Origin: Gemmatimonadota bacterium
GTDB lineage: Bacteria; Gemmatimonadota; Gemmatimonadetes; Gemmatimonadales; GWC2-71-9
Direction of reading: 5' to 3'
DNA length: 61,461 nt
NCBI GenBank assembly: GCA_039586365.1
Contig: JBDHKN010000014.1
Span: forward strand, 1 to 61,461
The notes beneath the pieces were generated by a model, which saw only the letters and a program-made list of their open reading frames with translations, ran no database searches and was not told where the DNA came from. Below are positions 82 through 61,461 of this stretch, piece after piece. The position numbers were made by a program, and so were the translations under genes. Position 1 is the first letter of the stretch. Each line of letters begins with the position of its first letter.

Positions 82-336
82 TTAGATCACGCGGCGGAAG
101 AAGTCATCCCTTCGCGGATCGATCTCAACACCCTGGAGCTTGACAGGTGTCAGGCCATCCTGCTGACCCTTGGGGACGATACGAATAGCCCGCCGCACGT
201 TGGGGGCCTTCCCGGCCAGGAGAACAGATGCAACCAGATCGGGGCCTGCATACCATAAACCGCGATCGACCTCGACGGAGTTCACACCAATGCTCGGTAC
301 CGTGCTTGCTTCGTTGTACTGGGCGCGGAGTGGCAA
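82..336 (-). pseudogene. Internal fragment of a family B DNA polymerase resembling casposon-type PolB
   Basis: LPLRAQYN...IGVN...LWYAGPDLVASVLLAGKAP..RRAIRIVPKGQQDGLTPVKL.G.VEIDPRRDDFFRRVI resembles, from recall, the PolB segment preceding motif B in casposon-type enzymes. In-frame stops bound it on both sides. Confidence 0.62.
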
Positions 337-628: not shown

Positions 629-3600
629 GTGACCGAAGATCTCCTAGGCCGTCTGAAGTCTGCGCTGGCTGACCGCTACCAGATTGAACGGGAGTTGGGT
701 AGCGGTGGGATGGCCACGGTCTATCTCGCCAAGGACCTGAAGCATGAGCGGCAGGTAGCCGTCAAGGTTCTCCGTCCTGAGTTGGCTGCAGCGCTAGGCT
801 CAGAACGGTTCCTCCGTGAAATCAAGATCGCTGCGAATCTGAATCACCCCCACATACTGCCACTGCATGACTCCGGAGATGCCGACGGTTTCCTCTACTA
901 CGTGATGCCGTACGTGGAAGGTGAATCACTCAGAGATCGGCTCAAGCGCGAGAAACAGCTTCCGATAGAGAACGCTCTCAGGATCGCCAGCGAAGTAGCC
1001 GACGCACTCGGCTTCGCACACGACCACAACGTCATCCACCGCGACATCAAGCCCGAGAACATTCTGCTAGAAGCAAAACACGCAGTCGTCGCTGACTTCG
1101 GTGTGGCTCGGGCAATCGAGCAAGCGGGAGAGACGAGACTCACAGAGACCGGGATCGCGATTGGCACACCAGCCTACCTGAGTCCAGAGCAGGCGAGTGG
1201 CGAGCGCGAGTTGGACGGCAGGAGCGACATCTACGCACTTGGCTGTGTGTTGTACGAGATGTTGGCTGGCCAGGCTCCGTTCACCGGCCCTACAGCCGAG
1301 AGCATCGTACAACAGCATCTCACCGCGAAGCCACACTCTGTAGCAGAAGTGCGGCCAACCGTTCACAGTGAAATAGAAGCCGCAGTGTCCAGAGCACTGG
1401 CAAAGGCACCCGCTGATCGGTTTCAGACCGGGGAGGAGCTTGTCACTGCATTGAGTGCAGTTTCCAGCATGCCCTCAGCTGCCACGTTGCCCGGCATCGC
1501 GTCACGCTGGAGCCATCCCGTGGCAGTGTCAGGGTTATTCGGTGCTGGAGCGGTGGCCGTGCTTGGCGTGGTCTACCTCCTCATGATGCGGCTTGGCCTG
1601 CCTGACTGGGTCTTGGTGGCCGCTGCCGTACTCCTAGTCGTGATCCTGCCGTTCGCACTGGGTACTGGACTAGTAGAGCGGCAGCGGGCGACTAGGACCG
1701 TACCAACTCCCTCATCCGGCTGGGGCAGTGTGGCGCACCGCTGGCTGCGGTGGCGGAAAGCGGCCCAGGGGAGCGTCATTGCTTTCGTTGGTCTCGGTGT
1801 GGTCACCACCGGCTACATGGGGATGAGGACATTGGGCATAGGGCCCATGGGCACGGTGATGGCGAGAGGGGTGCTGGAAGAGCAAGCTGAGATCATCTTA
1901 GCTGATTTCGAGAATCGTACTGCGGACTCGCTGATGGGCGTCACGATCACCGAAGCTCTGCGAATCGATCTGTCTCAGTCACAAGTGGTACGACTGGTCG
2001 ACCCAGCTACCATCGAGGCGGCCCTGGAGCGGATGGAGGTTGATCGCGTCGCCTTGTTTGACGATGAGCTGGCCCGCGAAGTGGCTCTTCGTGAGGGCAT
2101 CAAGGCAGTAATCGCGGGCGAGGTCGGCCAGCTCGGTCAAGGGTACATGGTATCGGCGAGGCTGATAGCCCCATCAGACGGAGATGTGCTGACAGCCGTC
2201 CGTGAGCGGGCGGACGGCGATGACCAGCTCTTTGATACCGTAGACCGGCTGTCGCGGCAGCTCAGGGAGCGGATCGGTGAATCCTTGAGAGATGTGAGAG
2301 CCAGCGCACCGCTGGAACAAGTCACCACTTCGTCGCTCGAAGCGTTACGTCTGTATACCCTAGCCTGGCCAGAGCAATCGATTGAGCTAATGGAGGAGGC
2401 AGTCCGTATCGACTCGACTTTTGCCATGGCATACTGGCGCTTGGCTGGGCAGTACGGGAACGAGGGTCGGATGCGTGAGCGGAATACCGCCGCACGAAGA
2501 GCATTCCGCTATCGTGACCGGCTGCCCCTCGTCCAGCGTTATCACGTAGAGTCCTTGTACTACTCCTATGTGGAGGGCGACCGCGACAAACGGATTTCGG
2601 CGTTACGCTCGGTCTTGGAGCTGGACCCATACAACACCTCAGCTATGAACAACCTCGGGAACTCGTTGAGCGGGCTGCGCAGGTTTGCCGAAGCCGAGAG
2701 CCTATACATCCAAGCGCGTGCTGTCCGCCCACATCACCTGCATTTCCAGGGCACTGTGGCTTCCCAAGTCAACCAGGGGAAGTACGAGGACGCCGACACC
2801 ACCCTTGATCTCTTCGCCGAGCATTTTCCTGGTCACCCAGGGTACTTCCGGTCCACGATCCGCTATGCAGCCGCCCGACATGACCTGGAAACCGTCGCGC
2901 TGTATCTCGATTCGCTGGAGCTGACGCAGCGAGAGAGCGTCTTGTGGAGGTACCGAGTCAGCGTCCATAGGACCTGGGTAGCCTTGAGACAAGGCAAGCT
3001 CTCCGAGGCCGAATACTACCTCCGGCAGGCGACAAGCCTACAGGAGCAGCGAGGACTGCTTGGAGCTTGCCTGGATCTGGCTGTGTCCCATCTCGGTAGA
3101 GTGGATATTGTCTACCGGGGCAATCCGTCCGCTGCCTGGCGGAAGGTCGAGGAAGCCTTGGAGCTATACCCGCTGGATTCGATTGCTCCCGAAGCGAGAC
3201 CATACGAGAATCTCGCGATTGCTGCAGCTATGGCGGACAGGGCCGACCAGGCGCGAGCATGGCTCGCAGAGCGGGTCGCGCTTGGGGAATCAGGCGAACT
3301 TGGCAGACTGAGGTCGGACCAGGAAGCTCGGGTCAGCGGCTACATCGCCCTCGCAGAGCTAAGGCCAGATGAAGCGATCACGGCCTACCTAGCATCCCAT
3401 GAGGGGTTTGCCTGCATCATCTGCGCACTCCCGGCCATAGCCCAGGCCTACGACCTCGCCGATTTGCCGGACTCCGCAATTGTCTTCTACGAGCGCTACC
3501 TGACCACACCTTGGATCAGGCGCTTGGAGGAAGATGCCTGGAACCTGCCCGGCACTCTGAAGCGTCTTGGCGAACTCTACGAGCAACGCGCCAACCACGA

Positions 3601-3718
3601 GAACGCGATTCACTACTACAACGAGTTCGTAGAGTTATGGCAGGAGGCCGACCCCGAGCTACAGCCGCAGGTGGAGGATGTGAGGCAGCGGATTGCGCGG
3701 TTGATGGGAGAGCCGTAA
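629..3718 (+). CDS. Ser/Thr protein kinase (Hanks type) with about 3 TM helices and C-terminal TPR region
   Basis: GSGGMA, VAVK, HRDIKPEN, DFG and GTPAYLSPE motifs intact; hydrophobic helices about aa 298-400; TPR-like repeats; AGGAGG RBS. Confidence 0.95.
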   Translation: MTEDLLGRLKSALADRYQIERELGSGGMATVYLAKDLKHERQVAVKVLRPELAAALGSERFLREIKIAANLNHPHILPLHDSGDADGFLYYVMPYVEGESLRDRLKREKQLPIENALRIASEVADALGFAHDHNVIHRDIKPENILLEAKHAVVADFGVARAIEQAGETRLTETGIAIGTPAYLSPEQASGERELDGRSDIYALGCVLYEMLAGQAPFTGPTAESIVQQHLTAKPHSVAEVRPTVHSEIEAAVSRALAKAPADRFQTGEELVTALSAVSSMPSAATLPGIASRWSHPVAVSGLFGAGAVAVLGVVYLLMMRLGLPDWVLVAAAVLLVVILPFALGTGLVERQRATRTVPTPSSGWGSVAHRWLRWRKAAQGSVIAFVGLGVVTTGYMGMRTLGIGPMGTVMARGVLEEQAEIILADFENRTADSLMGVTITEALRIDLSQSQVVRLVDPATIEAALERMEVDRVALFDDELAREVALREGIKAVIAGEVGQLGQGYMVSARLIAPSDGDVLTAVRERADGDDQLFDTVDRLSRQLRERIGESLRDVRASAPLEQVTTSSLEALRLYTLAWPEQSIELMEEAVRIDSTFAMAYWRLAGQYGNEGRMRERNTAARRAFRYRDRLPLVQRYHVESLYYSYVEGDRDKRISALRSVLELDPYNTSAMNNLGNSLSGLRRFAEAESLYIQARAVRPHHLHFQGTVASQVNQGKYEDADTTLDLFAEHFPGHPGYFRSTIRYAAARHDLETVALYLDSLELTQRESVLWRYRVSVHRTWVALRQGKLSEAEYYLRQATSLQEQRGLLGACLDLAVSHLGRVDIVYRGNPSAAWRKVEEALELYPLDSIAPEARPYENLAIAAAMADRADQARAWLAERVALGESGELGRLRSDQEARVSGYIALAELRPDEAITAYLASHEGFACIICALPAIAQAYDLADLPDSAIVFYERYLTTPWIRRLEEDAWNLPGTLKRLGELYEQRANHENAIHYYNEFVELWQEADPELQPQVEDVRQRIARLMGEP

Positions 3719-3739: not shown

Positions 3740-6565
3740 ATGACTGACGCCATCGACCGCCTTAAGACCGCCCTCACCGACCGCTACGCCATCGAGCGAG
3801 AACTCGGTAGCGGTGGTATGGCTACCGTCTACCTCGCCGAGGACGTGAAGCACCACCGCAAGGTAGCGGTGAAGGTGCTGCGCCCCGAACTCGCTGCTGC
3901 ACTCGGCGCTGATCGGTTCCATCGTGAGATAGAGATCGCCGCTAATCTGCACCATCCCCACATCCTGCCACTCTACGACTCCGGTGATGCGGACGGCTTC
4001 CTCTACTACGTCATGCCGTACATCGAAGGTCAGTCGCTCCGTGAAAAGCTCGCCCATGAGGGTGAGCTACCGATTCCCGAAGCTGTCCGAATCCTCCGAG
4101 ACGTCGTTGACGCACTGTCAGAAGCACATGATCACGGTGTAGTGCACCGCGACATCAAACCTGACAATGTGCTGCTCACCAAGCACCATGCTGTGGTCAC
4201 CGATTTCGGAGTGGCCAAAGCGGTGAGTGAAGCCACCGGCGCTCAGAAGCTCACCACCGAAGGCGTAGCACTCGGCACACCAGCGTATATGTCCCCCGAG
4301 CAGGCCGCTGCTGATTCTCACATTGACCACAGAGCCGACATATATGCTGTGGGTGTTGTTGCCTACGAGTTGCTCACGGGCAGGACTCCGTTCCTCGGCA
4401 CCACTCCACAGATGATCCTCTCGGCGCACATGACTGATACTCCAGAGCCGGTAAGCAAGTATCGGGAATCAGTCCCTCCTCCTCTAGAGCAGTTGGTGAT
4501 GAGGTGCTTGGAGAAAAAGGCCGCCGATAGGTGGCAGAGTGCTGAGGACCTGTTGCCACATTTGGAGGCGTTGGTGACGCCGAGTGGGGGGATCACGCCC
4601 ACAGGCACGATGCCGGTGGATCGGGTAGCAAAAGGTCGATGGATGACGGCAGGGGCTGCGGTCGCGGTGGTCGCTCTGGTGGTGGCCCTGTGGCAGCCTT
4701 GGGCGAGTGAGGACGTGGCGGCCGAGGGCGCCAGTTGGGCCTGGACGATCCTGGCGGAAGTCGAGGGTTCGGCACCCGAGGACACCCGCAGTCTCGTCGG
4801 GAGCCTCCTGGCTGGTGATATCGATGCCTCCGGATCGCTCCTAACGCTGCCACAGGACCAGATACTGCGCGGTCTGGCAAGCGCCATGAAGCCGGACACC
4901 ACGAGTCTGACGCAGTCGGTTGCCAGAGAGCTGGCAGAGCGAGGCGGGATCGGGACTGTGTTCGCACCGGAACTGGATCTGGTAGGCGGCACCTACGCCC
5001 TGACGGTGCGGGTCCTGCATGCGGCAGGGGACAGCGTGCTGGCCACAGAACGTGTTTCGGCGGCGAATGACGACGCGCTGATTCCGGCCAGTCGTGAGGT
5101 CGTGGAGACGTTGATTCCTATCCTGACGGTGTGGATGGGCGGTGAGGTCAGACGACCCAGGGCCAACCCGCCGGTTACCTCGTCCCTTGCGGCCTTCCGA
5201 AAACACCAGGAGGCGCAACGAGCCAACGCACTCGGGCGGTACCACGAGGCAATCGCATTATTTCGGGAAGCCCTGGCGATCGATCCCGACTTCGCTGCGG
5301 CCTGGGTAAGGATGGGGGGCGCCTACAGTAATGCGCGATTCCGTGACTCCGCTGAGTACGCATGGCGGGAGGCTCTCGAGCGCCCTGAGCGCCTTACTGA
5401 GGACCAGCGTCTGAACTTAGAGGCCCGGCTTGCAGGTGACTGGGTCGCTCGATTCCAGCGCAGCGAGCGACAGTACCGGGAGACCGGCATAGCTAGTAAC
5501 GCATACGCAGCAGCCCTCGCCGATGGAATGGGCCGGTACGAGGACGCAGTGGCCATCTGGGAGCAAATGGCTGAGCAGTCTCCGTTCGGGACTTCGGACT
5601 TCGTCAAATGGAACTTGGCGTCCATACTGTTGTGTTTGGGACGGGTCGAAGAGGCCGAAGCCGTGGCGCGCCGTCTGGAAGGAACCCCCCGTGAACTCCC
5701 TGTGAACGCGAAGATTGCGCTGAGGAAAGGCAATTGGGGAGAAGCCGAGCGTCTGGCGGTGGACGTGGCGAGGGACCCGGCCATGAGCGTCAGATTCCGG
5801 TCCGACGCGATCTGGGTACTCGCGTCCGCTCGTGCGGCTCAGGGCCGAATCCACGAGGCGGTCTCCGCACTGCATGAGATGATACGAACGAACCAGCGTC
5901 CGGGCCGGGAGTTGATCCACCGCCGAGCGCACTTGAACCTCCTGATTCTCACAATTGTGGGAGGCCTGACCGCGGAGGCGTGGGACTTGGAGAGGCTCCA
6001 GGCCGACACGACGGAAGAGGCGAGGGTACTGTCCGGGCTCTGGGCCGCCGAGTTGGGTGATACGGCGTTCGCGAGATCCTACCTCGAAGAGTTACCAGTC
6101 CCGGAGTTCGGCGAGTTCGCTCCGTCCACACACCAAGAGGCAACCGTTGCCGCTCTCCATGCCCGCGTCGCCGGGCGCAGACTGGATTGGGAGGAAGCCG
6201 TCCGACTGCTGGCGCCGGTCACTGGAGACCGTACGCCGAGGGGGCAGTTGGCGCACACCCAACTCCTCAACTGGGTCGTCGCCGAAGCGTACGAGGAACT
6301 CGGGCACCTGGACTCTGCGGTCAAGTTGTACAGTGGTATTGCCGACGGGTACCGGTTCGTCTTCGATGAGGTTAACGGCTTCGGCCTCACCTACTCGTTT
6401 GCCCACCGCGAGGCTGCTCTCCTCTACGGCCAGCTCGGTCAGGACGCCGAGGCGATCGAGCACTGGCGCGCGTTCCTGGACGCCTTCACCGACCCCGATC
6501 CCGAGTTCGAGTGGATGATGGAGGAGGCGCGGGTGGAATTGGACAGGCTTCGTAGAGGACGCTAG
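3740..6565 (+). CDS. Ser/Thr protein kinase with single TM helix and TPR region
   Basis: GSGGMA, VAVK, HRDIKPDN, DFG, GTPAYMSPE; TM AGAAVAVVALVVALW; TPR ALAIDPDFAAAW; GGAG RBS. Confidence 0.95.
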   Translation: MTDAIDRLKTALTDRYAIERELGSGGMATVYLAEDVKHHRKVAVKVLRPELAAALGADRFHREIEIAANLHHPHILPLYDSGDADGFLYYVMPYIEGQSLREKLAHEGELPIPEAVRILRDVVDALSEAHDHGVVHRDIKPDNVLLTKHHAVVTDFGVAKAVSEATGAQKLTTEGVALGTPAYMSPEQAAADSHIDHRADIYAVGVVAYELLTGRTPFLGTTPQMILSAHMTDTPEPVSKYRESVPPPLEQLVMRCLEKKAADRWQSAEDLLPHLEALVTPSGGITPTGTMPVDRVAKGRWMTAGAAVAVVALVVALWQPWASEDVAAEGASWAWTILAEVEGSAPEDTRSLVGSLLAGDIDASGSLLTLPQDQILRGLASAMKPDTTSLTQSVARELAERGGIGTVFAPELDLVGGTYALTVRVLHAAGDSVLATERVSAANDDALIPASREVVETLIPILTVWMGGEVRRPRANPPVTSSLAAFRKHQEAQRANALGRYHEAIALFREALAIDPDFAAAWVRMGGAYSNARFRDSAEYAWREALERPERLTEDQRLNLEARLAGDWVARFQRSERQYRETGIASNAYAAALADGMGRYEDAVAIWEQMAEQSPFGTSDFVKWNLASILLCLGRVEEAEAVARRLEGTPRELPVNAKIALRKGNWGEAERLAVDVARDPAMSVRFRSDAIWVLASARAAQGRIHEAVSALHEMIRTNQRPGRELIHRRAHLNLLILTIVGGLTAEAWDLERLQADTTEEARVLSGLWAAELGDTAFARSYLEELPVPEFGEFAPSTHQEATVAALHARVAGRRLDWEEAVRLLAPVTGDRTPRGQLAHTQLLNWVVAEAYEELGHLDSAVKLYSGIADGYRFVFDEVNGFGLTYSFAHREAALLYGQLGQDAEAIEHWRAFLDAFTDPDPEFEWMMEEARVELDRLRRGR

Positions 6566-6649
6566 CATCTCAGCGACTACTCTGATGGCTTCGTGCTGCT
6601 CGGTTACCATCCTTGATCGCTTGCTGCCCGCTGTCGCGTCAGTGGCCTT

Positions 6650-6889
6650 TCCCTTCCGGATACGGTCTCTCCCACGGCTCCGATTCCGACCTGAAAGCGG
6701 CGTCGGTATTGACGCGTATGACACGCTCCGATTTGGCTTCGCTGCAGCCAAGGTCTGCGCCACGCGCTCAACCACTGGTGCCACGGCTCGTGACCATTTC
6801 ACACCGGTGAGTGCCAATTGTTGTGTCGCTGGTGGCATGACTCGGCAGGCACCTTGGCGGTTCTCGAAGAAGTCAGCCTTGCGGAACGC
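6650..6889 (-). pseudogene. C-terminal fragment resembling Cas1-solo/casposase
   Basis: Extending ORF 6092..6838 upstream in frame gives AFRKADFFENRQGACRVMPPATQQLALTGVKWSRAVAPVVERVAQTL...IPTPLSGRNRSRGR, resembling from recall the C-terminal part of bacterial casposon-type Cas1. An in-frame stop lies just upstream and the catalytic core is absent. Confidence 0.58.
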
Positions 6890-7045
6890 CGCTTGGAGCG
6901 GCCGCAGCTGCTACCCCCACGCACCCACGCTGCGAAGGCCGGAGCGCTAGCGACATCAGCCGGTCCTAGGAGAACCCGGGCAAAGCCTTTACATTACGAC
7001 TGTATTACTGCTGTCAGCCGTTAATATTACAAGGTAAATGACGTC

Positions 7046-8362
7046 ATGAAGCGCCTGATCACCCCCAGGCTGGTTGCCTGGAAGAACTCACAGCGACGCA
7101 AACCGCTCATCGTCCGCGGCGCCAGGCAGGTGGGCAAAACTCACTCCATCAAGTCGTTTGGAGAGGAGCACTTCGACGAGTGTGCGACCGTCGATCTGGA
7201 AAGGAACCGCGGCTGGCACCGGATCTTTGGCGACGACTTAGATGCCCGGCGCATCCTCTCGGAACTGCGGGTCGTGCTCGACAAGAGCATCGAGCCGGGC
7301 AAGACGCTGCTGTTCTTCGACGAGATTCAGAGCTGCCCTCGGGCAATCCTGGCACTCCGCTATCTGTACGAGGAGGTTCCCGAGCTGCACGTGATCGCTG
7401 CAGGCTCGCTGCTCGATTTCGCGCTCTCGGATATCTCGTTTCCGGTGGGTCGGGTGCAGTTCCTGGAGATGTCTCCCTTGGTCTTCGCCGAATACCTGTG
7501 GGCGATAGGACGAGACCGGTCTGCCGAGGTGGTCCTATCGAATCCGATCAGAGTGCCCGATTCGGTCCACCTATCGTTGCTGGCAGATCTCAGAGACTAC
7601 TTCTTCGTGGGCGGCATGCCGGAGAGTGTCCTGGCGTACGAACGGAACCGCTCGGTCCGGGATAGCCGTGCGGTGCACCACGAGCTGTGCGAATCCTACA
7701 GGCAGGATTTCGCCAAATACGCGCCGCGCGCCGACCCCTACTGCCTCGACGCCGTACTCGCCGGAACCGCCCGCCAGGTCGGGAGGCAGGTCAAGTACAC
7801 GAGCCTGGCGGAGGGCTACTCCGGTCCCACGATCAGGCGGGCGTTTAATCTGCTCACCAAAGCGCGCGTGGCGAGGAAGGTGCCGGCCACCAACCCGACA
7901 GGCGTGCCGCTGGGTGCCGGCGCGTCACCGCTACGCTTCAAGGCGCTGATGGTCGATATCGGATTGATGCAGCATCTACGCGGTGTTCCGATCGATCTCG
8001 ACTACGCCAAGGCGGATCTACTGAAAATCCACGAGGGTGACATGGCTGAGCAGTTCGTCGGGCAGGAGATGCTGGTGTCGCAACGGGCCGATCTGTACTA
8101 CTGGTCCCGCCAGGCCAAGAGCAGCACTGCCGAGGTGGATTTCTTGGCCGTGATTGGGGGCTCGATCGTTCCCGTCGAAGTGAAGAGCGGCCCGTCCGGG
8201 AGGCTCCGCAGTCTCCATCTGCTGCTCGATTCCTATCCGAACTGCGAGCGCGCCTACGTCTTCAGCACTGCGCCCTACGCCGAGCTTCCGGAACAGAGAC
8301 TCACGTTCCTTCCACTGTACTACGCGCTTCGGGCGACGTCGGAGCGGGCAATCGGAAGTTGA
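7046..8362 (+). CDS. AAA+ ATPase (AAA_14) with DUF4143 and C-terminal PD-(D/E)xK-like motif
   Basis: Walker A GARQVGKT, Walker B FFDEIQ, GGMPE, C-terminal EVDF...PVEVKSG. Confidence 0.9.
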   Translation: MKRLITPRLVAWKNSQRRKPLIVRGARQVGKTHSIKSFGEEHFDECATVDLERNRGWHRIFGDDLDARRILSELRVVLDKSIEPGKTLLFFDEIQSCPRAILALRYLYEEVPELHVIAAGSLLDFALSDISFPVGRVQFLEMSPLVFAEYLWAIGRDRSAEVVLSNPIRVPDSVHLSLLADLRDYFFVGGMPESVLAYERNRSVRDSRAVHHELCESYRQDFAKYAPRADPYCLDAVLAGTARQVGRQVKYTSLAEGYSGPTIRRAFNLLTKARVARKVPATNPTGVPLGAGASPLRFKALMVDIGLMQHLRGVPIDLDYAKADLLKIHEGDMAEQFVGQEMLVSQRADLYYWSRQAKSSTAEVDFLAVIGGSIVPVEVKSGPSGRLRSLHLLLDSYPNCERAYVFSTAPYAELPEQRLTFLPLYYALRATSERAIGS

Positions 8363-11638: not shown

Positions 11639-12098
11639 GTTGAATACGAGGCGGACCCTTCCGAAGTTTCGCGGTGTCGTCGAGGGGTGGTCGGTCATCC
11701 ACTTTGCATAGGGGCGAAGGAGACGCCATGTCGAGCGCCAGGGCTGAATCCATGCGGAAGGGCAACAAATACGTCTCCCCGATCACGCTAGTACAGCTGG
11801 AGTGCGCCCTGCGGTGTGCTTCGCGAAAGCCATCCCGAAGAGGCGGAGTCACTCTATGAGTTACCGCTGCTAGTGGTCAGTGACCTGCGGACGATGTGGC
11901 TAACCGAATATCCGCGTGAAGTTCTCTGGGATCTCAAAGAAGTGCTCCTAAGTGTGTCCAGGGTGCGTGCGTTTCCGAGTCTTCCAGCGCGTGCCTTTCC
12001 CAGTATTCCGATGTCGCCTTTGTGGCGGCGAGTTTCCCCTAGCGAGAGTGATAGAGCAGACAGTCACATGCCCGATGAGCCAATGCATGAGATTGGCC

Positions 12099-12230
12099 CT
12101 CGAAGCCGGCAAGATCACACCGATAATCGACAGTACCTACGCGCTGAGTGAGGCCCGCGAGGCTCTCCGGCACATGGTCGAGGAAGAACCCCAGGGAAAG
12201 GTGATCATCACCGCGGCAGAAGCTGCTTGA
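12099..12230 (+). pseudogene. C-terminal remnant of an NAD(P)-dependent alcohol dehydrogenase/quinone reductase (MDR)
   Basis: LEAGKITPIIDSTYALSEAREALRHMVEEEPQGKVIIT is a typical MDR C-terminus; no matching upstream coding sequence. Confidence 0.75.
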
Positions 12231-12360: not shown

Positions 12361-13146
12361 GTGCGTTTTCCCGAAGAGGTGACTCCACTACTTGCTGAGC
12401 TGCCGCACGCGCTCAAGCATCTTCTTGGCACGAACCTGGTGGGTTTCTATGTATACGGCTCCGTATTAGAGCCAACGTTTGACCCAGCGCGGAGCGACGT
12501 CGACTGCATTGCCGTGACGGAGCGGGCGTTGACCGATGTCGAGTATCGCCAACTCAATGACTGGTTGACCGAGACCGCTGCAGCCGATCCGTGGGTCAAG
12601 CGCCTGCAGCTGTCGTTCTTGAACAAGAGAAGCATTCTCTCCGAGGACCGGACGGCATGCCTCTATCAATTCGGGGTTCTAACACGCAGCGGCTCGGACG
12701 GAAATCCCCTCATCTGGATGGACTTGTTTCGGCGTGGCCGCACTCTCTTTGGCGCCGGGCCGGAGTCATTTGTTCCGGAAATCACGCCTGAGATCGTTCA
12801 CCAGGCACTGGTTCGAGAGGTTGGCTACCTGCGAGAGGAACTGAGCGGCAAGCCTGGTAGCGAATGGCGTGATAAGCTGTCCTATCGGATCTATGCTGTT
12901 CTCACACTCTGCAGGGTTCTCTACTCAGTGCGGACCGGCAAGGTTGCATCGAAGCAACGGGCTGCTCGCTGGGCACTCGACCATGTCCCAGCGGACTGGC
13001 ACGACCTGATCCATCGGGCATTAGAGATTGGTCAATCCGGTGGACTAGAAGGTCTCCCTGTCCCACGCCTATTTGCATTCATCGAGTATACGCACGCTCA
13101 GGTTCATTCCACGCCACCGGTTTCCCCAGATGTCGCTGACGTGTGA
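12361..13146 (+). CDS. Nucleotidyltransferase, AadA/ANT-like with DUF4111-type C-terminal domain
   Basis: GFYVYGS...SDVD motif; YAVLTLCRVLYS..TG.V.SK..AA.WA. Confidence 0.85.
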   Translation: MRFPEEVTPLLAELPHALKHLLGTNLVGFYVYGSVLEPTFDPARSDVDCIAVTERALTDVEYRQLNDWLTETAAADPWVKRLQLSFLNKRSILSEDRTACLYQFGVLTRSGSDGNPLIWMDLFRRGRTLFGAGPESFVPEITPEIVHQALVREVGYLREELSGKPGSEWRDKLSYRIYAVLTLCRVLYSVRTGKVASKQRAARWALDHVPADWHDLIHRALEIGQSGGLEGLPVPRLFAFIEYTHAQVHSTPPVSPDVADV

Positions 13147-35491: not shown

Positions 35492-35645
35492 ACTGATCCT
35501 CCTCCGAATCTAGCATGGAGCGGATACGCAGCAACGCAACCACAGTGCTTCGCATCAGGGTAAGTCCGCCGTGTTCGGAGAGAGAACTCTGATTGGGGTG
35601 GAACCCCGGTAGACCGCGCAGTGGAGTGGAACCAGCCCCACCGTA

Positions 35646-35719
35646 CGCGCCCGGAGGGACTCGAACCCCCAGCCCTCAGATCCGAAGTCTGATGCTCTAT
35701 CCAATTGAGCTACGGGCGC
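35646..35719 (-). tRNA. tRNA-Arg, anticodon UCG, CCA not encoded
   Basis: GCGCCCG acceptor stem, D arm GCTCAATTGGATAGAGC, anticodon arm TCAGA-CTTCGGA-TCTGA, T loop TTCGAGT. Confidence 0.96.
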
Positions 35720-35859
35720 GGAACTTCACAGTCTAAGCAGTCTTCCAACCAGGCACCACCCTCACCGCACAGCGCCTTCATCAGCTAGAATGGCGAGGAA
35801 AACACAGAAACGAATGGCGGCGAGGAATAGTATCTCGTTCGGAGCCACGTGACTGAGTA

Positions 35860-40048: not shown

Positions 40049-41704
40049 CTAGCGCGGGGGCCGGTGCCGAGTCACCTCGCCCGGAAGCGCACCCGTAGCA
40101 TTTCCACCATCGATGACCAACTCTCCGTTCACGACGACGTAGTCGATGCCCTCCGAGTACTGCAACGGATCGGTGAACGTAGCACGGTCCTGGACCGTGT
40201 TGGGATCGAAGACCAACAGGTCCGCACGCATCCCGACAGCGATCCGTCCCCGGTCTGCCAGGCCCAAGAGCGTGGCCGGAAGCGACGTCAACTTGCGGAC
40301 GGCCTCGCCTAGACCGATCACTCCCTCTTCACGCACGTACTTTGCCAGCACCCGAGTGAACGAGCCGAAAGCACGGGGATGTGCACTAGCCACTGAGTCC
40401 GGATTCGTAGGCGACGCGTCGGTGTCGAAGCATACGAACGGTGCCCGCATTGCCTGGTGCTTCTGTTCCTCGTTCATGCTCAACGGATTCACGCTCACGC
40501 GACCGGCCTGTACCAGATCGAAGAACGCCTGCCACGAGTCGACACCGCGCAAGTCAGCTACCTGTTGTACTGACAAACCCACGAAGGCCGAATCGGTGTC
40601 GGGTCCCACCCGGGCGATCAGCACGTTGTCCCAATTGAACCCGACGTGCCGGTACCAGTTCTCCCAGTCCGACGTAGCCTCGATCTCCCGACGCAGTTGA
40701 CGCCTGACGTCGACTCTGCCCAGCGTTTCCAAAAAGACGTCCTCGCCCCTGGCGTAGTGCCGCGGGTGAATGAATGACCCGAGGCCAATTCCGTTACGCA
40801 CATAGGGGTAGATATCCGCCGTGATCGCGAGACCGCTGCTTCGTGCGTCCTCGATCAGGCGGAGCGCGTCGGTCATGAGGTGCCAGTTCTCCTGCCCCGC
40901 TGCCTTGAGGTGATAGACGTGCACCGGGATCTCGGCTTCCCGACCGATGCGCACCGCCTCCTCAATCGCCTCGAGTACCTGGCCGCTCTCGTTCCGCAGG
41001 TGCGTGAAGTACACGCCACCGGACGCCGCAGCAGCTCTGGCCAGTTCAACGAGTTCGTCGGTCGTGGCGTACGAGCCGGGCGGATAGATCAACGCCGACG
41101 ACAGTCCCACGGCCCCTTGCTCCATCGCCTGGGCAACCAGTTCCTTCATGCGCGACAGTTGCTCCGCGTCCGGCTCTTGGTCCACGTCGCCCAGAACGAG
41201 GCGACGCACCTGAGCCGCACCCACATTGTGCACCACGTTGAGGCCGACTCCCTTGCCTTCGAGCAGCGGGAGGTACTCTCCGTACGTGGTCCAGCTGGTG
41301 TCGACGTTGAATTGCTCCTGGACTTCCTGCATGGTTCGCTCGTCTTGCGGCGCAGGTGAGCCGCCCTCACCCATCATCGCCGTGGTGATACCCTGACGGA
41401 GTTTGCTTTGCGCGCTGACGGCATCCAGCAGCAGGGGCAGGCTGCTTCCTCCCATCATGTCGATGAATCCGGGTGTGACGACCATGCCGTCCGCACGGAT
41501 ACTGCGTCGTGAACTCTCGCCCGAGAGATCGCCCACTGCCGTGATATCACCGTCCCTTATGCCCACATCGGCGGTGTACTCCAATCCACCCGACCCGTCG
41601 AACACGAGCCCACCAGCCACTATGAGATCATACGAGGGAGGTGCACAGCTCGAGAGAGCGATAACGGCGAGCAGCGAGACGATTGTGTCACAACGGCGGT
41701 TCAT
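40049..41704 (-). CDS. N-acyl-D-amino-acid deacylase-like amidohydrolase, lipoprotein
   Basis: PGFID, GLSSALIYPPG, THLRNE, HPRAFG.F, ADLLVFD; LSSC lipobox. Start set at 41704 after GGGAGA. Confidence 0.9.
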   Translation of the reverse strand: MNRRCDTIVSLLAVIALSSCAPPSYDLIVAGGLVFDGSGGLEYTADVGIRDGDITAVGDLSGESSRRSIRADGMVVTPGFIDMMGGSSLPLLLDAVSAQSKLRQGITTAMMGEGGSPAPQDERTMQEVQEQFNVDTSWTTYGEYLPLLEGKGVGLNVVHNVGAAQVRRLVLGDVDQEPDAEQLSRMKELVAQAMEQGAVGLSSALIYPPGSYATTDELVELARAAAASGGVYFTHLRNESGQVLEAIEEAVRIGREAEIPVHVYHLKAAGQENWHLMTDALRLIEDARSSGLAITADIYPYVRNGIGLGSFIHPRHYARGEDVFLETLGRVDVRRQLRREIEATSDWENWYRHVGFNWDNVLIARVGPDTDSAFVGLSVQQVADLRGVDSWQAFFDLVQAGRVSVNPLSMNEEQKHQAMRAPFVCFDTDASPTNPDSVASAHPRAFGSFTRVLAKYVREEGVIGLGEAVRKLTSLPATLLGLADRGRIAVGMRADLLVFDPNTVQDRATFTDPLQYSEGIDYVVVNGELVIDGGNATGALPGEVTRHRPPR

Positions 41705-57454: not shown

Positions 57455-58048
57455 CTACGACGCGTCGGGAGCGTAGTAGGGATTCGCACCCGATGCGTGG
57501 TCAGTGACGTCCCTGACTCCTTTTAGCCCTGGGATGGCCCGCCTGAGCGTTGCCTCCACACCCTGCCGCAGCGTCACGGCCGCCATGCCACACCCATGAC
57601 AACCGCCCATGAGGCGGACTATTACAGTGGCGTCCTGCACATCGATTAACTCGATCTTGCCCCCATGCTGCGCCACCACCGGATTCACCTGAGTGCGGAA
57701 CACCTCCTCCACGACGCCGTATATGGCATCGTCATCCGCTGGCTCCGGCCCCGGAGTCGCTGACTCCTCCTGACGAGCGGCACCGGTATTGACGGCGTAG
57801 CGTACCTGGGGTTCGAACACGCTCCACGGCACGTCCGGATCCGATTTCACAACCGTGAGAACATTGCCAGAAACAATCACTTGGTCTATTCCGCTGATGC
57901 CCAGCACGTCCTGAGCGACCGGTGAGTCGGCAGCATCGTCCTGCGTGGTGTACACGGTGACACCCGGTTTCTCAACCGGACGGCTCAGGATGAACTTGCA
58001 GCGGACATCGTCGACGGGCTCTGCCGTCAAGTCAATAGGAGTAGCCAT
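57455..58048 (-). CDS. NifU/NfuA-family Fe-S cluster carrier
   Basis: Nfu N-terminal domain plus HGG.I.L...GGCHGCG...TLRQGVE...DVTDH.SG.NPYY. Confidence 0.92.
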   Translation of the reverse strand: MATPIDLTAEPVDDVRCKFILSRPVEKPGVTVYTTQDDAADSPVAQDVLGISGIDQVIVSGNVLTVVKSDPDVPWSVFEPQVRYAVNTGAARQEESATPGPEPADDDAIYGVVEEVFRTQVNPVVAQHGGKIELIDVQDATVIVRLMGGCHGCGMAAVTLRQGVEATLRRAIPGLKGVRDVTDHASGANPYYAPDAS

Positions 58049-58098
58049 ATATCAATGTACCTCCTGCCGGGAGCCGGGGCAGCGCGGGGCAATGCCCG

Positions 58099-59298
58099 CT
58101 ACGCCAAGACTTGTCGTATCTCCCCCAGCGCCCACTCGAGTGTCTCTTGCTCAATAACCAACGGAGGAGCAAACCGTATCACCTGCTCATGAGTCTCCTT
58201 GGCGAGGATGCCACGCTCCATCAGGGCCTCACAGAAGGGCCGCGCGGTGCCGCTTTCGCCGCGAACGACGACACCGATCAACAGGCCCTTGCCTCTCACC
58301 TCCGACACGTGAGCGGATCCTAAAGCACGGAGTTGCTCCATGAACCAGTTACCCAACTCGTTAGCACGTTCGGGCAGCCGCTCTTCGACGAGTACCTTGA
58401 GGGCCGCCCGGGCGATGGCCGCACCCAACGGGTTTCCACCAAAAGTGGATCCATGGTCGCCAGGTGCGAAGACGTCCATCACCTCCCGGTCTGACAGCAT
58501 GGCCGAAACCGGATAGAATCCGCCGCTCAGCGCCTTTCCCACCATTACGACGTCAGCTCTCACATCCTCCCAATCGCTGGCGAACCAGCGGCCCGTGCGG
58601 CCCAGTCCAGTCTGGATCTCATCGGCCATGAACAACACGTCATTGTCATGGCACAGCTTATAGGCGTCGCGCAGATATCCTTCCGGAGGTATCACCACGC
58701 CACCTTCACCTTGAATGGGCTCGACTAGGAAACCAGCAGTGTTGGGCGTGATCGCCGCTGCCAACGCCGCGGTATCCCCGTAGGGAATCGTAACGAATCC
58801 GGGAGTCAACGGTCCGAAGCCATTCCGATACGACTCCTCGGTGGAGAACGACACGATGGTGGTCGTCCTCCCGTGGAAGTTGTTCTCACAGACGATGATC
58901 TCCGCCTGGTTGTCGGGGATCCCTTTCACACGATAGCCCCAGCGTCGCACGGCCTTGATGGCGGTCTCCACCGCCTCCGCTCCAGTATTCATCGGCAACG
59001 CCTTCTCATACCCTGTCAGTTCACACAACTCCCGCAAGAATGGTCCCATCTCGTCGTTGTGGAATGCACGAGATGTGAGCGTCAGCCGGTCGAGTTGCCG
59101 TTTGGCAGCCTGAACGATTGCCGGATGGCGGTGTCCCTGATTGACCGCTGAGTAGGCAGATAGACAGTCGAGGTACTTGTTCCCATCCACGTCCCAAACC
59201 CACGCACCCTCTCCCCGTTCGAGGACTACCGGAAGCGGATGGTAGTTGTGAGCGCCGTACAGGTCGGCTTCGGCGATGTAATCTGCGGTACTTGGCAT
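58099..59298 (-). CDS. rocD: Ornithine--oxo-acid transaminase
   Basis: GAHNYHPLPVV, SAYSAVNQGH, EPIQGEGG, DEIQTGLGRTG, GKALSGG, HGSTFGGNP. Confidence 0.96.
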   Translation of the reverse strand: MPSTADYIAEADLYGAHNYHPLPVVLERGEGAWVWDVDGNKYLDCLSAYSAVNQGHRHPAIVQAAKRQLDRLTLTSRAFHNDEMGPFLRELCELTGYEKALPMNTGAEAVETAIKAVRRWGYRVKGIPDNQAEIIVCENNFHGRTTTIVSFSTEESYRNGFGPLTPGFVTIPYGDTAALAAAITPNTAGFLVEPIQGEGGVVIPPEGYLRDAYKLCHDNDVLFMADEIQTGLGRTGRWFASDWEDVRADVVMVGKALSGGFYPVSAMLSDREVMDVFAPGDHGSTFGGNPLGAAIARAALKVLVEERLPERANELGNWFMEQLRALGSAHVSEVRGKGLLIGVVVRGESGTARPFCEALMERGILAKETHEQVIRFAPPLVIEQETLEWALGEIRQVLA

Positions 59299-59420
59299 GG
59301 TCGCTAGACTCTTCTCGGGCGTTCGGTTGGCTGTTTGATCTGCTGCGTGGGATGCCCCGCAGCGGCTGTTGCCTCAGCAACCTACATGGCGGGTGACCGG
59401 TAGTAAACTGGGAGTGAGGA

Positions 59421-59538
59421 GTTGGTGGAAGACGGTGAGGGACGGTGAGGGTAGCTGGTAGCTATCAGGCCGAATCCGCTTTCTGTGTCCCCCTCCACTC
59501 TTCACCATCTGCCACCGTCCTTCACCGTTCACCATCCC
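59421..59538. repeat. Inverted pair of decamer tandem arrays
   Basis: About 3 GACGGTGAGG-type units at 59421-59450 face CTTCACCGTC-like units at 59500-59538. Confidence 0.75.
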
Positions 59539-60561
59539 TTACCGTCTCAACAACAGCACCGCGAACTTCTTCTCATCATCGGTGAACACGCGCCGCACTT
59601 CAAACCCGAACTGCGCCAGGTCACGCTTCATGTCTTCCAGGATGAATTTCTTACTGATCTCGACCCTTACTTCTTCCCCGGCAGGAATTTTCACCACTTG
59701 ATGGAGCGGAGTGATCGAGATCTCCTGCTCCGTGAGAAAGCGAACCCGTATGTCGACCTCTTGCCGCTTCGAGTCGTAGGTTGCAACGTGCTCGATCCCG
59801 GCCAGATCGACACCGGCGTCGAGCTCCCGGTTCATCCGCGCAAAAATATTCTCCGTGAACTGCGCCGTGATGCCGGCGGAGTCATTGTATGCTGACTCTA
59901 GTATCGCTGCATCTTTGACAAGATCGATACCCAACAGGAAGTAGTCTCCCGCTGACAGACTGCCCGCGATGCGACTCAAAAACTCTGCTGTCTCTTCCTC
60001 ACTGAGATTCCCCAGCGTACTCCCAAGGAACAGCACTAGCGATGGAGAGTGCTCGCGGAACAGCGAGAAAGCCAGCTCATACTGACCCACGATGCCCACG
60101 ACCTGTACCGCCGGGTGCCGTGCAGTGATGTTCCGAGCTGCGATCCTCAGAGCGGATTCACTGATATCCACCGGCATGTATCGCACGTTGTGATCCTTCC
60201 TGCTGTACGCTGCAAGCAGGTAGTCGGTCTTGACCGAAGTGCCGGACCCAAGCTCAATCAATGTCACCTGCCCGGTTTCTTGCCGAATGTCAGCAGCGTG
60301 CCGCGCCAAGATCGAGGCTTCCGTGCGAGTCAGGTAGTATTCCGGAAGCTCGCAGATCTTCTCGAACAGCTCGCTACCTCGGTGGTCGTACAAATAGCGA
60401 CACGGTAGTGAGCGCGGATGAGCGGTCAACCCCTCGGCTGCTGCCGTTGCGAAGTCGAGGATCGGATCCCCTTCCAGCCGTTCCAGGACAACGAACTGGA
60501 CCTGTGCACCAGCCTGCCAAGAAATGCGATCTCTCCGGGTGATGACGGAACTTCCGGGCAT
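59539..60561 (-). CDS. egtD: L-histidine N(alpha)-methyltransferase
   Basis: YD.RGSELFE.IC.LPEYYLTRTE, ELGSG, FLGST.GN, G.DLVKD...AYNDSAG.TA.F, EIS.KF. Confidence 0.92.
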   Translation of the reverse strand: MPGSSVITRRDRISWQAGAQVQFVVLERLEGDPILDFATAAAEGLTAHPRSLPCRYLYDHRGSELFEKICELPEYYLTRTEASILARHAADIRQETGQVTLIELGSGTSVKTDYLLAAYSRKDHNVRYMPVDISESALRIAARNITARHPAVQVVGIVGQYELAFSLFREHSPSLVLFLGSTLGNLSEEETAEFLSRIAGSLSAGDYFLLGIDLVKDAAILESAYNDSAGITAQFTENIFARMNRELDAGVDLAGIEHVATYDSKRQEVDIRVRFLTEQEISITPLHQVVKIPAGEEVRVEISKKFILEDMKRDLAQFGFEVRRVFTDDEKKFAVLLLRR

Positions 60562-60837
60562 GGGAAGCGCTTTCGTGGGAATTCCAGGGAGCTTGCGAGG
60601 TGAGTTTCAGTGTATCCAACGTACGAAACGGCGCCGATCCGTGCAAGGTTGCGTCAGTAGGTTGCCGCAGCTCGCTATTGTGCAACATCACAGGCACCTC
60701 GAGCGTATTAGAGTTGGGGTGCCGCGAGCACCTGCCGTCACTGCGGTTGGTGCGGTGCCACAACCCCACTATCTTGCGCGGACCTTTTAGCTGACCGAGC
60801 ATACGTCCCCAAATTGAACGCCACACTTGAGGACTGC

Positions 60838-61461
60838 ATGAATAGATTAGCAGCAAGCATGACTCCGCTCTTGGTAGCCTCGCTGGTACCACTTGTTGCG
60901 GCCGGAGCCCAACAGCCTGTTCCACCATCAGAAACAGCCACAGGCCTCCGAGTGTTCCTCGACTGTCAGAGGGCTCGCTGCGACCAGGACCACTTTCGCC
61001 GCGAGATCAATTTCGTGAACCACGTGCGCGATCGCCGCGACGCCCAGGTGCACGTGCTCATCACGTCGCAGAGCACGGGCGGAGGCACCGAGTACACCTT
61101 CCTCTTCATCGGGCTGCAGGATTTTGCCGGAGCGGCGGACACGCTGCGATTTGTCACCAGCGCGACCGACACGCAAGACGAGCGCCGGGAAGGTCAGACG
61201 CAGACAATCAAACTCGGCTTGATGCACTATGTGGCCCACACTCCAATCGGTAACCTAGTCAATATCTCTTACCGAGCACCCCAACAGATCGTTTCGACCG
61301 GACAGGCCGTAAACGATCCCTGGAACTTCTGGGTGTTTCGGATACAAGCCGGCGGCAGGCTGGAGAAAGAGAGCCTAACCGACGAGTACTCCATAAACGG
61401 CTCCATTTCGGCAAACCGAACGACGGAGTTGTGGAAGACTTCGTTTTCTGCCAGAGGTAAC
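60838..61461 (+). CDS. Partial exported hypothetical protein, probably outer-membrane (runs off the window)
   Basis: Open frame MNRLAAS...AGA-QQ...VFLDC...CD..HFRREINFVNHVRDR...DPWNFWVF to the window end; GAGGA RBS. Missing from the ORF track because it has no stop. Confidence 0.85.
   Translation, partial: MNRLAASMTPLLVASLVPLVAAGAQQPVPPSETATGLRVFLDCQRARCDQDHFRREINFVNHVRDRRDAQVHVLITSQSTGGGTEYTFLFIGLQDFAGAADTLRFVTSATDTQDERREGQTQTIKLGLMHYVAHTPIGNLVNISYRAPQQIVSTGQAVNDPWNFWVFRIQAGGRLEKESLTDEYSINGSISANRTTELWKTSFSARGN

Follow-up and report, generated by a model that had tools for sequence, protein, structure and literature searches.

How a stretch resembling part of a Cas1 gene came to lie between a kinase gene and an ATPase gene of a Gemmatimonadota bacterium is the question raised by this locus. 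The window, meaning the whole stretch of DNA that was analyzed, spans 61,461 nucleotides (assembly GCA_039586365.1, contig JBDHKN010000014.1). A sequence-only reading had assigned positions 6650 to 6889 to a C-terminal Cas1 fragment of casposase type rather than CRISPR type. A casposon is a rare self-copying transposon related to CRISPR.

The minus-strand frame from 6910 to 6092 is open and contains the peptide quoted in that reading, which had correctly placed the beginning of the match upstream of the first ATG. The 115 residues that lie outside the kinase gene (P0001) matched 11 of 773 candidates at an E value of ≤0.001 (best E value, 1.5e-41; 72% identity), and all 11 carry Pfam Cas_Cas1, showing that the Cas1 homology is real. 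In a library clustered at 50%, 417 proteins matched the remnant at the same threshold. The remnant aligns, with 72% identity, to residues 280 to 383 of Cas1 proteins of approximately 450 amino acids, among them P0002 (449 amino acids), and it contains no stop and no frameshift in 103 codons. A blastn search gave 75% DNA identity between positions 6580 to 6886 and the cas1 gene of locus L001, and the bounds of the HMM match are 6575 and 6892. The interval first proposed thus does carry Cas1 homology, but the match extends approximately 70 bases further, to 6580. P0001 alone retrieved no family in Pfam, NCBIfam, or the PDB sequences, since the Cas1 profile ends almost where P0001 starts.

The fragment is internal instead of C-terminal, as it has no N-terminal domain and ends ahead of the HTH (Pfam HTH_3, positions 440 to 468 of the L001 frame, below the cut-off). 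In the Methanosarcina mazei casposase, the active site consists of E162, H232, and E247, and deletion of the HTH abolishes activity/integration, according to the available sections of PMC6977970. These three residues align with E164, H247, and E262 of P0002 (counted on the alignment), all upstream of the remnant. A full cas1 with the catalytic E/H/E residues and the HTH, as an intact casposon would have at this locus, is absent, and residues 280 to 383 are all that was found. The sequence-only reading was silent on the missing active site and on the family B DNA polymerase (PolB) remnant at the beginning of the window.

TABLE 1 Features of the window, with positions numbered from its first nucleotide
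Feature	Positions	Strand	Remarks
Internal part of a casposon gene for a family B DNA polymerase, 84 codons bounded by stops	85..336	-	54.7% over 86 amino acids to L001 PolB, E value 1.6e-18
Ser/Thr kinase-TPR gene between the two remnants	629..3718	+	Pfam
Second Ser/Thr kinase-TPR gene, stop 15 bases ahead of the cas1 remnant	3740..6565	+	Pfam, sequence
Open frame containing the cas1 remnant, ATG at 6838	6092..6910	-	Below 6580, only antisense of the kinase gene 3' end
Left junction, where the beginning of an orphan kinase-tail motif breaks off past the three bases (6580 to 6582) in common with the cas1 remnant	6566..6582	+	G406 match ends at 6580; X3 and X4 alleles diverge after 6582
Internal casposase (Cas1) gene remnant, residues ∼280 to 383 of 449	6580..6892	-	In frame, no stops; without catalytic residues, without HTH
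Right flank, probably the kinase-tail motif again, in a second and decayed copy	6906..6950	+	21 to 26 of 45 bases, ungapped, versus five copies
ATPase gene (AAA_14 + DUF4143) flanking the cas1 remnant opposite the kinase gene	7046..8362	+	Pfam
Core block: NifU-like, class III aminotransferase, histidine methyltransferase, ORF at 60814	57455..61461		Synteny with a block next to the closest intact casposon

The source genome is a metagenome bin of 132 contigs (86% complete, 3.3% contamination). In this 86% complete genome, a profile built from nine close relatives gave a single match, the remnant itself, and neither Pfam Cas1 nor cas2 (Pfam Cas2) was found. A simple repeat test for CRISPR arrays flagged one of the 132 contigs, the remnant-bearing contig not being among them, and the repeat of the flagged contig looks by eye like a tandem coding repeat. 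The earlier statement that neither an array nor cas2 accompanies the fragment is in line with these results.

A quick IQ-TREE run on 58 rows, in which the remnant fills 24% of the columns, nests the remnant inside a clade of 33 PolB-linked rows (support, 100; stem, 2.36) and, within it, in a subclade with L001 and P0002 to P0009 (support, 97). The remaining 25 rows, which are array-linked or weakly matching Cas1, are separate from the PolB-linked clade. The profile search and the phylogenetic placement that had been proposed returned Cas1 matches, and these were not confined to CRISPR-linked Cas1. The assignment to the casposase type is borne out, as the closest relatives are of casposon type and the PolB-linked clade stands apart from CRISPR-type Cas1 (SH-aLRT, 100).

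The nearest relative with a known context, L001, is part of a casposon with 158-bp inverted repeats and IS3 and Mrr-family cargo (G425:C365, positions 1 to 22778, loci L001 and L134), the contig of which ends ahead of the second target duplication. It combines cas1 with a 1,072-amino-acid PolB-like gene, a 156-amino-acid HNH-like gene, and an HTH gene. The polymerase has only a weak Pfam match, to DNA_pol_B_2 (E value, 6.8e-6, just under the cut-off). The 156-amino-acid ORF beside polB is conserved in seven genome loci, and its His/Cys pattern suggests an HNH-like protein, the only Pfam match being DUF7097 below the cut-off. A search of 401 Gemmatimonadota genomes (the family sample) gave matches to the remnant in 10, one of which, G624 (E value, 3.8e-4), showed no casposase match on re-check and was dropped. 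Eight other genomes contain relatives at E values below 1e-41, and PolB lies beside cas1 in six of them; the contig of G148 is 4 kb long, and G344 has no PolB in 46 kb. The 75 metagenome loci comprise 61 close and 14 distant ones, divided by a cut drawn after the table was seen, with PolB present at 26 of the close loci and at none of the distant ones. Where at least 4 kb upstream was available at close loci, PolB was present in 20 of 23. CRISPR-like arrays were detected at none of the 61 close loci, many of which are short, versus 5 of the 14 distant loci.

Six complete elements of 10.5 to 18.8 kb were delimited by TIRs and flanking direct repeats (G150, G077, G278, L074, L081, and L087). The direct repeats measure 14 to 18 bases when their overlap with the G/C run of the TIRs is counted and 12 to 14 bases without it. 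Casposases integrate TIR-ended DNA at a leader-plus-target site, duplicating approximately 14 to 15 bp, as described in the accessible part of PMC9939771. A TIR-like stretch adjoins the duplicated target, as a built-in leader, in the complete casposons L034 (1807 to 12340), L038 (6455 to 18098), L074, L081, and L087. G278:C2 (344400 to 377200, loci L035 and L036) holds tandem casposon copies with a shared target duplication between them, PolB being found in the second only. The stretches of G228, G343, G111, G344, G429, G637, and G538 contain no clear TIR pair with a duplication. The cas1 and polB genes are divergent in 24 of 26 metagenome loci; the other two have cas1 upstream of polB on one strand, cargo genes lying between. 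This same-strand arrangement is found in the casposon-like loci L063 and L066, and a nucleotidyltransferase-like gene pair beside cas1 in L066 resembles a CBASS module by eye. No tRNA lies near the elements of the relatives, and a tRNA target is thus not supported; the one tRNA of the window is 29 kb away.

The relatives thus show the features of the casposon superfamily, which are Cas1 without cas2 or an array, PolB beside cas1, and TIRs with a target duplication. Family 3 consists of bacterial casposons located in intergenic regions, with PolB and HNH genes, in the portions of PMC4046053 and PMC4779613 that could be consulted. The relatives have a bacterial host (Gemmatimonadota), and the HNH-like gene is found in the element. 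The DFF-E-x-G-x-CR motif, which the sequence-only reading had tied to casposase-type Cas1, has counterparts in the published family 3 rows AKRDFFETPEG and TRKDFYETNEG, and the displayed rows of families 1 and 2 are without it. The basic PTPL tail named alongside it has no match in the accessible PMC4779613 supplement, where the displayed alignment block stops short of it. The clade of the remnant likely belongs to family 3, as judged by eye against the published alignment.

A second casposon remnant is located near the end of the contig. The frame of this PolB remnant matches 25 of 122 candidates (best, 61% identity), the full-length matches being approximately 1,000 amino acids long, and it is the only match of the L001 polymerase in the 86% complete genome. 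It lies 6.2 kb from the cas1 remnant, which is upstream of it on the same (minus) strand, with two kinase-TPR genes in the interval. The two may come from one element with replaced cargo or from two separate elements. A search for the L001-type TIR in the genome gave no match, nothing near the remnants is convincing as a G-run end, and one side may lie beyond the end of the contig, which comes 84 bases past the PolB remnant. GGGTAG precedes the 5' edge of both remnants on the gene strand; it resembles a casposon end and may be due to chance.

Kinase alleles free of the cas1 remnant define its left junction. In G406, a genome of the same genus, the match to the 3' end of the second kinase gene stops at 6580, and the DNA beyond it contains no cas1. 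Runs X3 and X4 yielded contigs with a kinase allele that is approximately 98% identical, and the X3 allele has other DNA after 6582 and no remnant. After the junction, both G406 and X3 have an orphan copy of a 45-base kinase-tail motif (..DYPPFQELMRPKG-stop); what had looked like a hairpin after the kinase stop in G406 is this coding motif instead. The motif has seven copies in the genome at E values up to 0.08, of which four end reading frames, one of these having a kinase motif. Copies were noted in this genome (G000) on contigs C44, C49, C50, C52, C89, C104, and C125 and in L047. Its presence at the end of several long frames and as orphan copies after kinase genes suggests recombination among kinase gene tails. 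Positions 6580 to 6582 are common to the scrap-free allele and cas1, a 3-base microhomology that chance can give.

On the right side, positions 6906 to 6950 read ..YP....LRRP..stop, and the anchored score of this stretch was reached by 3 of 20,000 random windows, with the anchor chosen after looking. The right flank shares approximately 13 of 32 bases (by eye) with the scrap-free X3 allele. This poor match argues against a clean insertion with a target duplication, which was rejected, and for a deletion between separate remnants. Contigs from two studies span the right junction, an X2 contig covering 6834 to 7293 with 0 differences and an X3 contig covering 6629 to 6936 with 3 differences. No contig bridging the left junction was seen among the matches listed.

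Relative to L001, the cas1 remnant has a dS of 0.93 and a dN/dS of 0.20 over 103 codons, a ratio that mostly records the time when both were working genes and does not date the break. Near-identical run contigs show four listed base differences within the remnant, all of which change the residue, two of them restoring the family consensus, and a 1-base gap is present in one contig; the depth is under 5, and these differences may be errors. It is truncation rather than erosion that speaks for decay. Five other Gemmatimonadota genomes likewise contain broken copies (G425, G538, G344, G644, and the same-genus G403). In G425, a 171-base cas1 piece lies closely outside one end of the intact element, approximately 40 bases after a kinase stop; in G538, cas1 and polB are frameshifted; and in G403 (L056, 1249 to 1598), cas1 is internally deleted, so that a short N-terminal piece adjoins the HTH-coding end.

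The homology and the absent domains, together with the casposon organization of the relatives, the nearby PolB remnant, and the scrap-free kinase alleles, make it very probable that the 310-base cas1 piece is the leftover of a family-3-type casposon that inserted in a variable region and was then deleted away. A casposon, or two, would have integrated here through its own Cas1, by a staggered cut at a leader-plus-target site and a duplication of approximately 14 bp. Successive deletions would then have removed the ends and most of the genes, one of them probably via the 3-base microhomology at the left junction, and the remnant would now be functionless, its conservation reflecting its past as a working gene. 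Against this reading stand the uninterrupted frame with its dN/dS of 0.20, the lack of any element end among the sequences found, and the rarity of the same-strand layout of cas1 and polB (2 of 26). It is very unlikely that the casposase instead pasted the piece into a kinase-tail motif in the manner of a spacer, or that the clade targets kinase gene tails, the D-Y-P codons of which resemble a casposon end. Imperfect 12-base direct repeats (6571 to 6582 and 6905 to 6916; 9 of 12 bases by eye) are near the size of a casposon duplication, a TIR-like stretch stands directly ahead of the duplicated target in G150, G278, and L074, the G425 piece also follows a kinase stop, by approximately 40 bases, and in vitro the M. 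mazei casposase accepts a variety of substrates for integration (PMC6977970, in the sections available). A clean insertion nevertheless predicts near identity beyond the right repeat, where the match to the X3 allele is poor. In the closest intact element, the end sequence is different and the contig stretch shows no kinase-tail motif; nor was any of the six complete elements seen to lie in one. Kinase genes are moreover common, with 56 motifs in the genome and 4 in the window. There is little chance that the casposase took a TIR-less piece of its own element into a kinase-tail repeat with a short duplication, which would make the locus a natural repeat-spacer-repeat and multicopy kinase gene ends a new kind of casposon target.

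A retained mini-protein translated from the ATG at 6838, which might bind DNA or interfere with incoming casposases via its basic tail, is a highly improbable explanation. The open frame with its ATG, the dN/dS of 0.20, and a second genome that keeps an overlapping part of cas1 would fit such a product, but 158 codons of the frame would be antisense to the kinase gene, no minus-strand promoter-like site was found in 6400 to 7200, and no matching piece was present in seven same-genus genomes searched. The two cas1 remnants furthermore differ in their ends, and their dS is 0.82 between them versus 0.93 and 0.68 to the intact gene, so that they look independent. An assembly chimera, in which a cas1 read from another organism was joined into the contig, is extremely unlikely: the fragmented bin with its contamination, other cas1 copies in similar samples, and the left junction unbridged among the matches listed are compatible with it, but the right junction recurs in contigs of two studies and a second casposon remnant lies on the same contig. 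Descent from the cas1 of a CRISPR adaptation module is suggested by databases, which label the matches "CRISPR-associated Cas1," and by full-length relatives that pass TIGR00287. None of seven relatives passes a subtype cut-off, however, a long, fully supported branch separates the clade from array-linked and other Cas1, cas2 was not found in the genome, and the relatives sit with PolB inside TIRs. This origin, which has next to no probability, is already refuted by the tree and the contexts.

The G425 element ends approximately 8 kb from a four-gene block that corresponds, in identical order and strand, to the core block at the far end of the window, approximately 50 kb from the cas1 remnant, and this synteny hints at a shared variable region. 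No casposon gene occurs in the 4 to 20 kb beside the NifU-like block in five same-genus genomes, and no other examined casposon stretch carried this block; a general hot spot beside it is thus not supported. The region of the window collects gene fragments, such as the C-terminal end of a zinc-binding dehydrogenase (11952 to 12227) and, by eye, a kinase-like stretch ahead of an amidohydrolase gene (∼40049 to 40190). Positions 12361 to 13146 encode a protein that ends in an aminoglycoside adenylyltransferase C-terminal domain (AadA_C; E value, 4e-17). A single tRNA-Arg(TCG) at 35645 to 35720, in the middle of the variable region, is a possible island integration site. A repeated noncoding element of approximately 190 bases with internal short repeats was observed in L047 (∼1260 to 1440) and in G000 on C107 (1201 to 1387) and C109 (39689 to 39884), and its first bases resemble the inverted repeat at G278.

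The remnant is most likely dead debris from an element type that is already known, and the finding is ordinary. As debris it matters little in itself, and the relatives it led to are of modest value. They indicate that family-3-type casposons occur across Gemmatimonadota and in soil or sediment metagenomes. A literature search for "casposon" together with "Gemmatimonad" found nothing, although supplements listing casposase hosts may name the phylum, and PMC9755687, the one paper that a search for work since 2020 on casposons in metagenome-assembled genomes returned, does not mention Gemmatimonadota in the accessible text. Among plasmid records, the only matches were three distant CRISPR Cas1 proteins of Thermus. 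No biochemical test of a family 3 casposase was found in the portions of the literature covered, and the six complete elements, with defined ends and target duplications, could serve directly as substrates when such an enzyme is first assayed in vitro. If the piece had after all been captured by the casposase, it would give in vivo support to the proposed route from casposon to CRISPR array.

Among known casposons, the relatives resemble family 3 in having PolB, an HNH-like gene, TIRs starting with a G run, and target duplications, whereas the window holds two remnants only, without ends. Gemmatimonadota are not among the phyla named for family 3 in the available text. The Cas1 of AceAut-C1, from Candidatus "Acetothermum autotrophicum," has C-terminal zinc-binding and HTH domains (PMC4046053, as far as available). 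By eye, it is like this clade in the N terminus, in the catalytic blocks NPANA-LNYLY and H-A-D, and in the DFFE-x-x-G motif, at which the remnant begins (displayed part of the PMC4779613 supplement). The P0002 subclade, in contrast, has the C-terminal HTH but not the zinc-binding domain. The family 2 casposase of M. mazei (PDB 6opm; PMC6977970) is the second-best PDB sequence match of a full-length relative (E value, 1e-16). In the available sections of its description, it shares with the relatives the identical three catalytic positions, the C-terminal HTH, and a 14-bp duplication; it differs in being archaeal, in targeting tRNA-Leu, and in being without the DFFE-x-x-G motif, and the cas1 remnant lies outside the region of its catalytic triad. 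Decayed casposons in Methanococcoides burtonii and tandem inactivated copies in Methanosarcina are described in the accessible part of PMC4779613, where repeated use of one locus builds islands. Like the window, these have no TIR or target site duplication and have fragmented core genes, but decay in the window has gone much further, leaving approximately 310 bases of cas1 and approximately 250 bases of polB.
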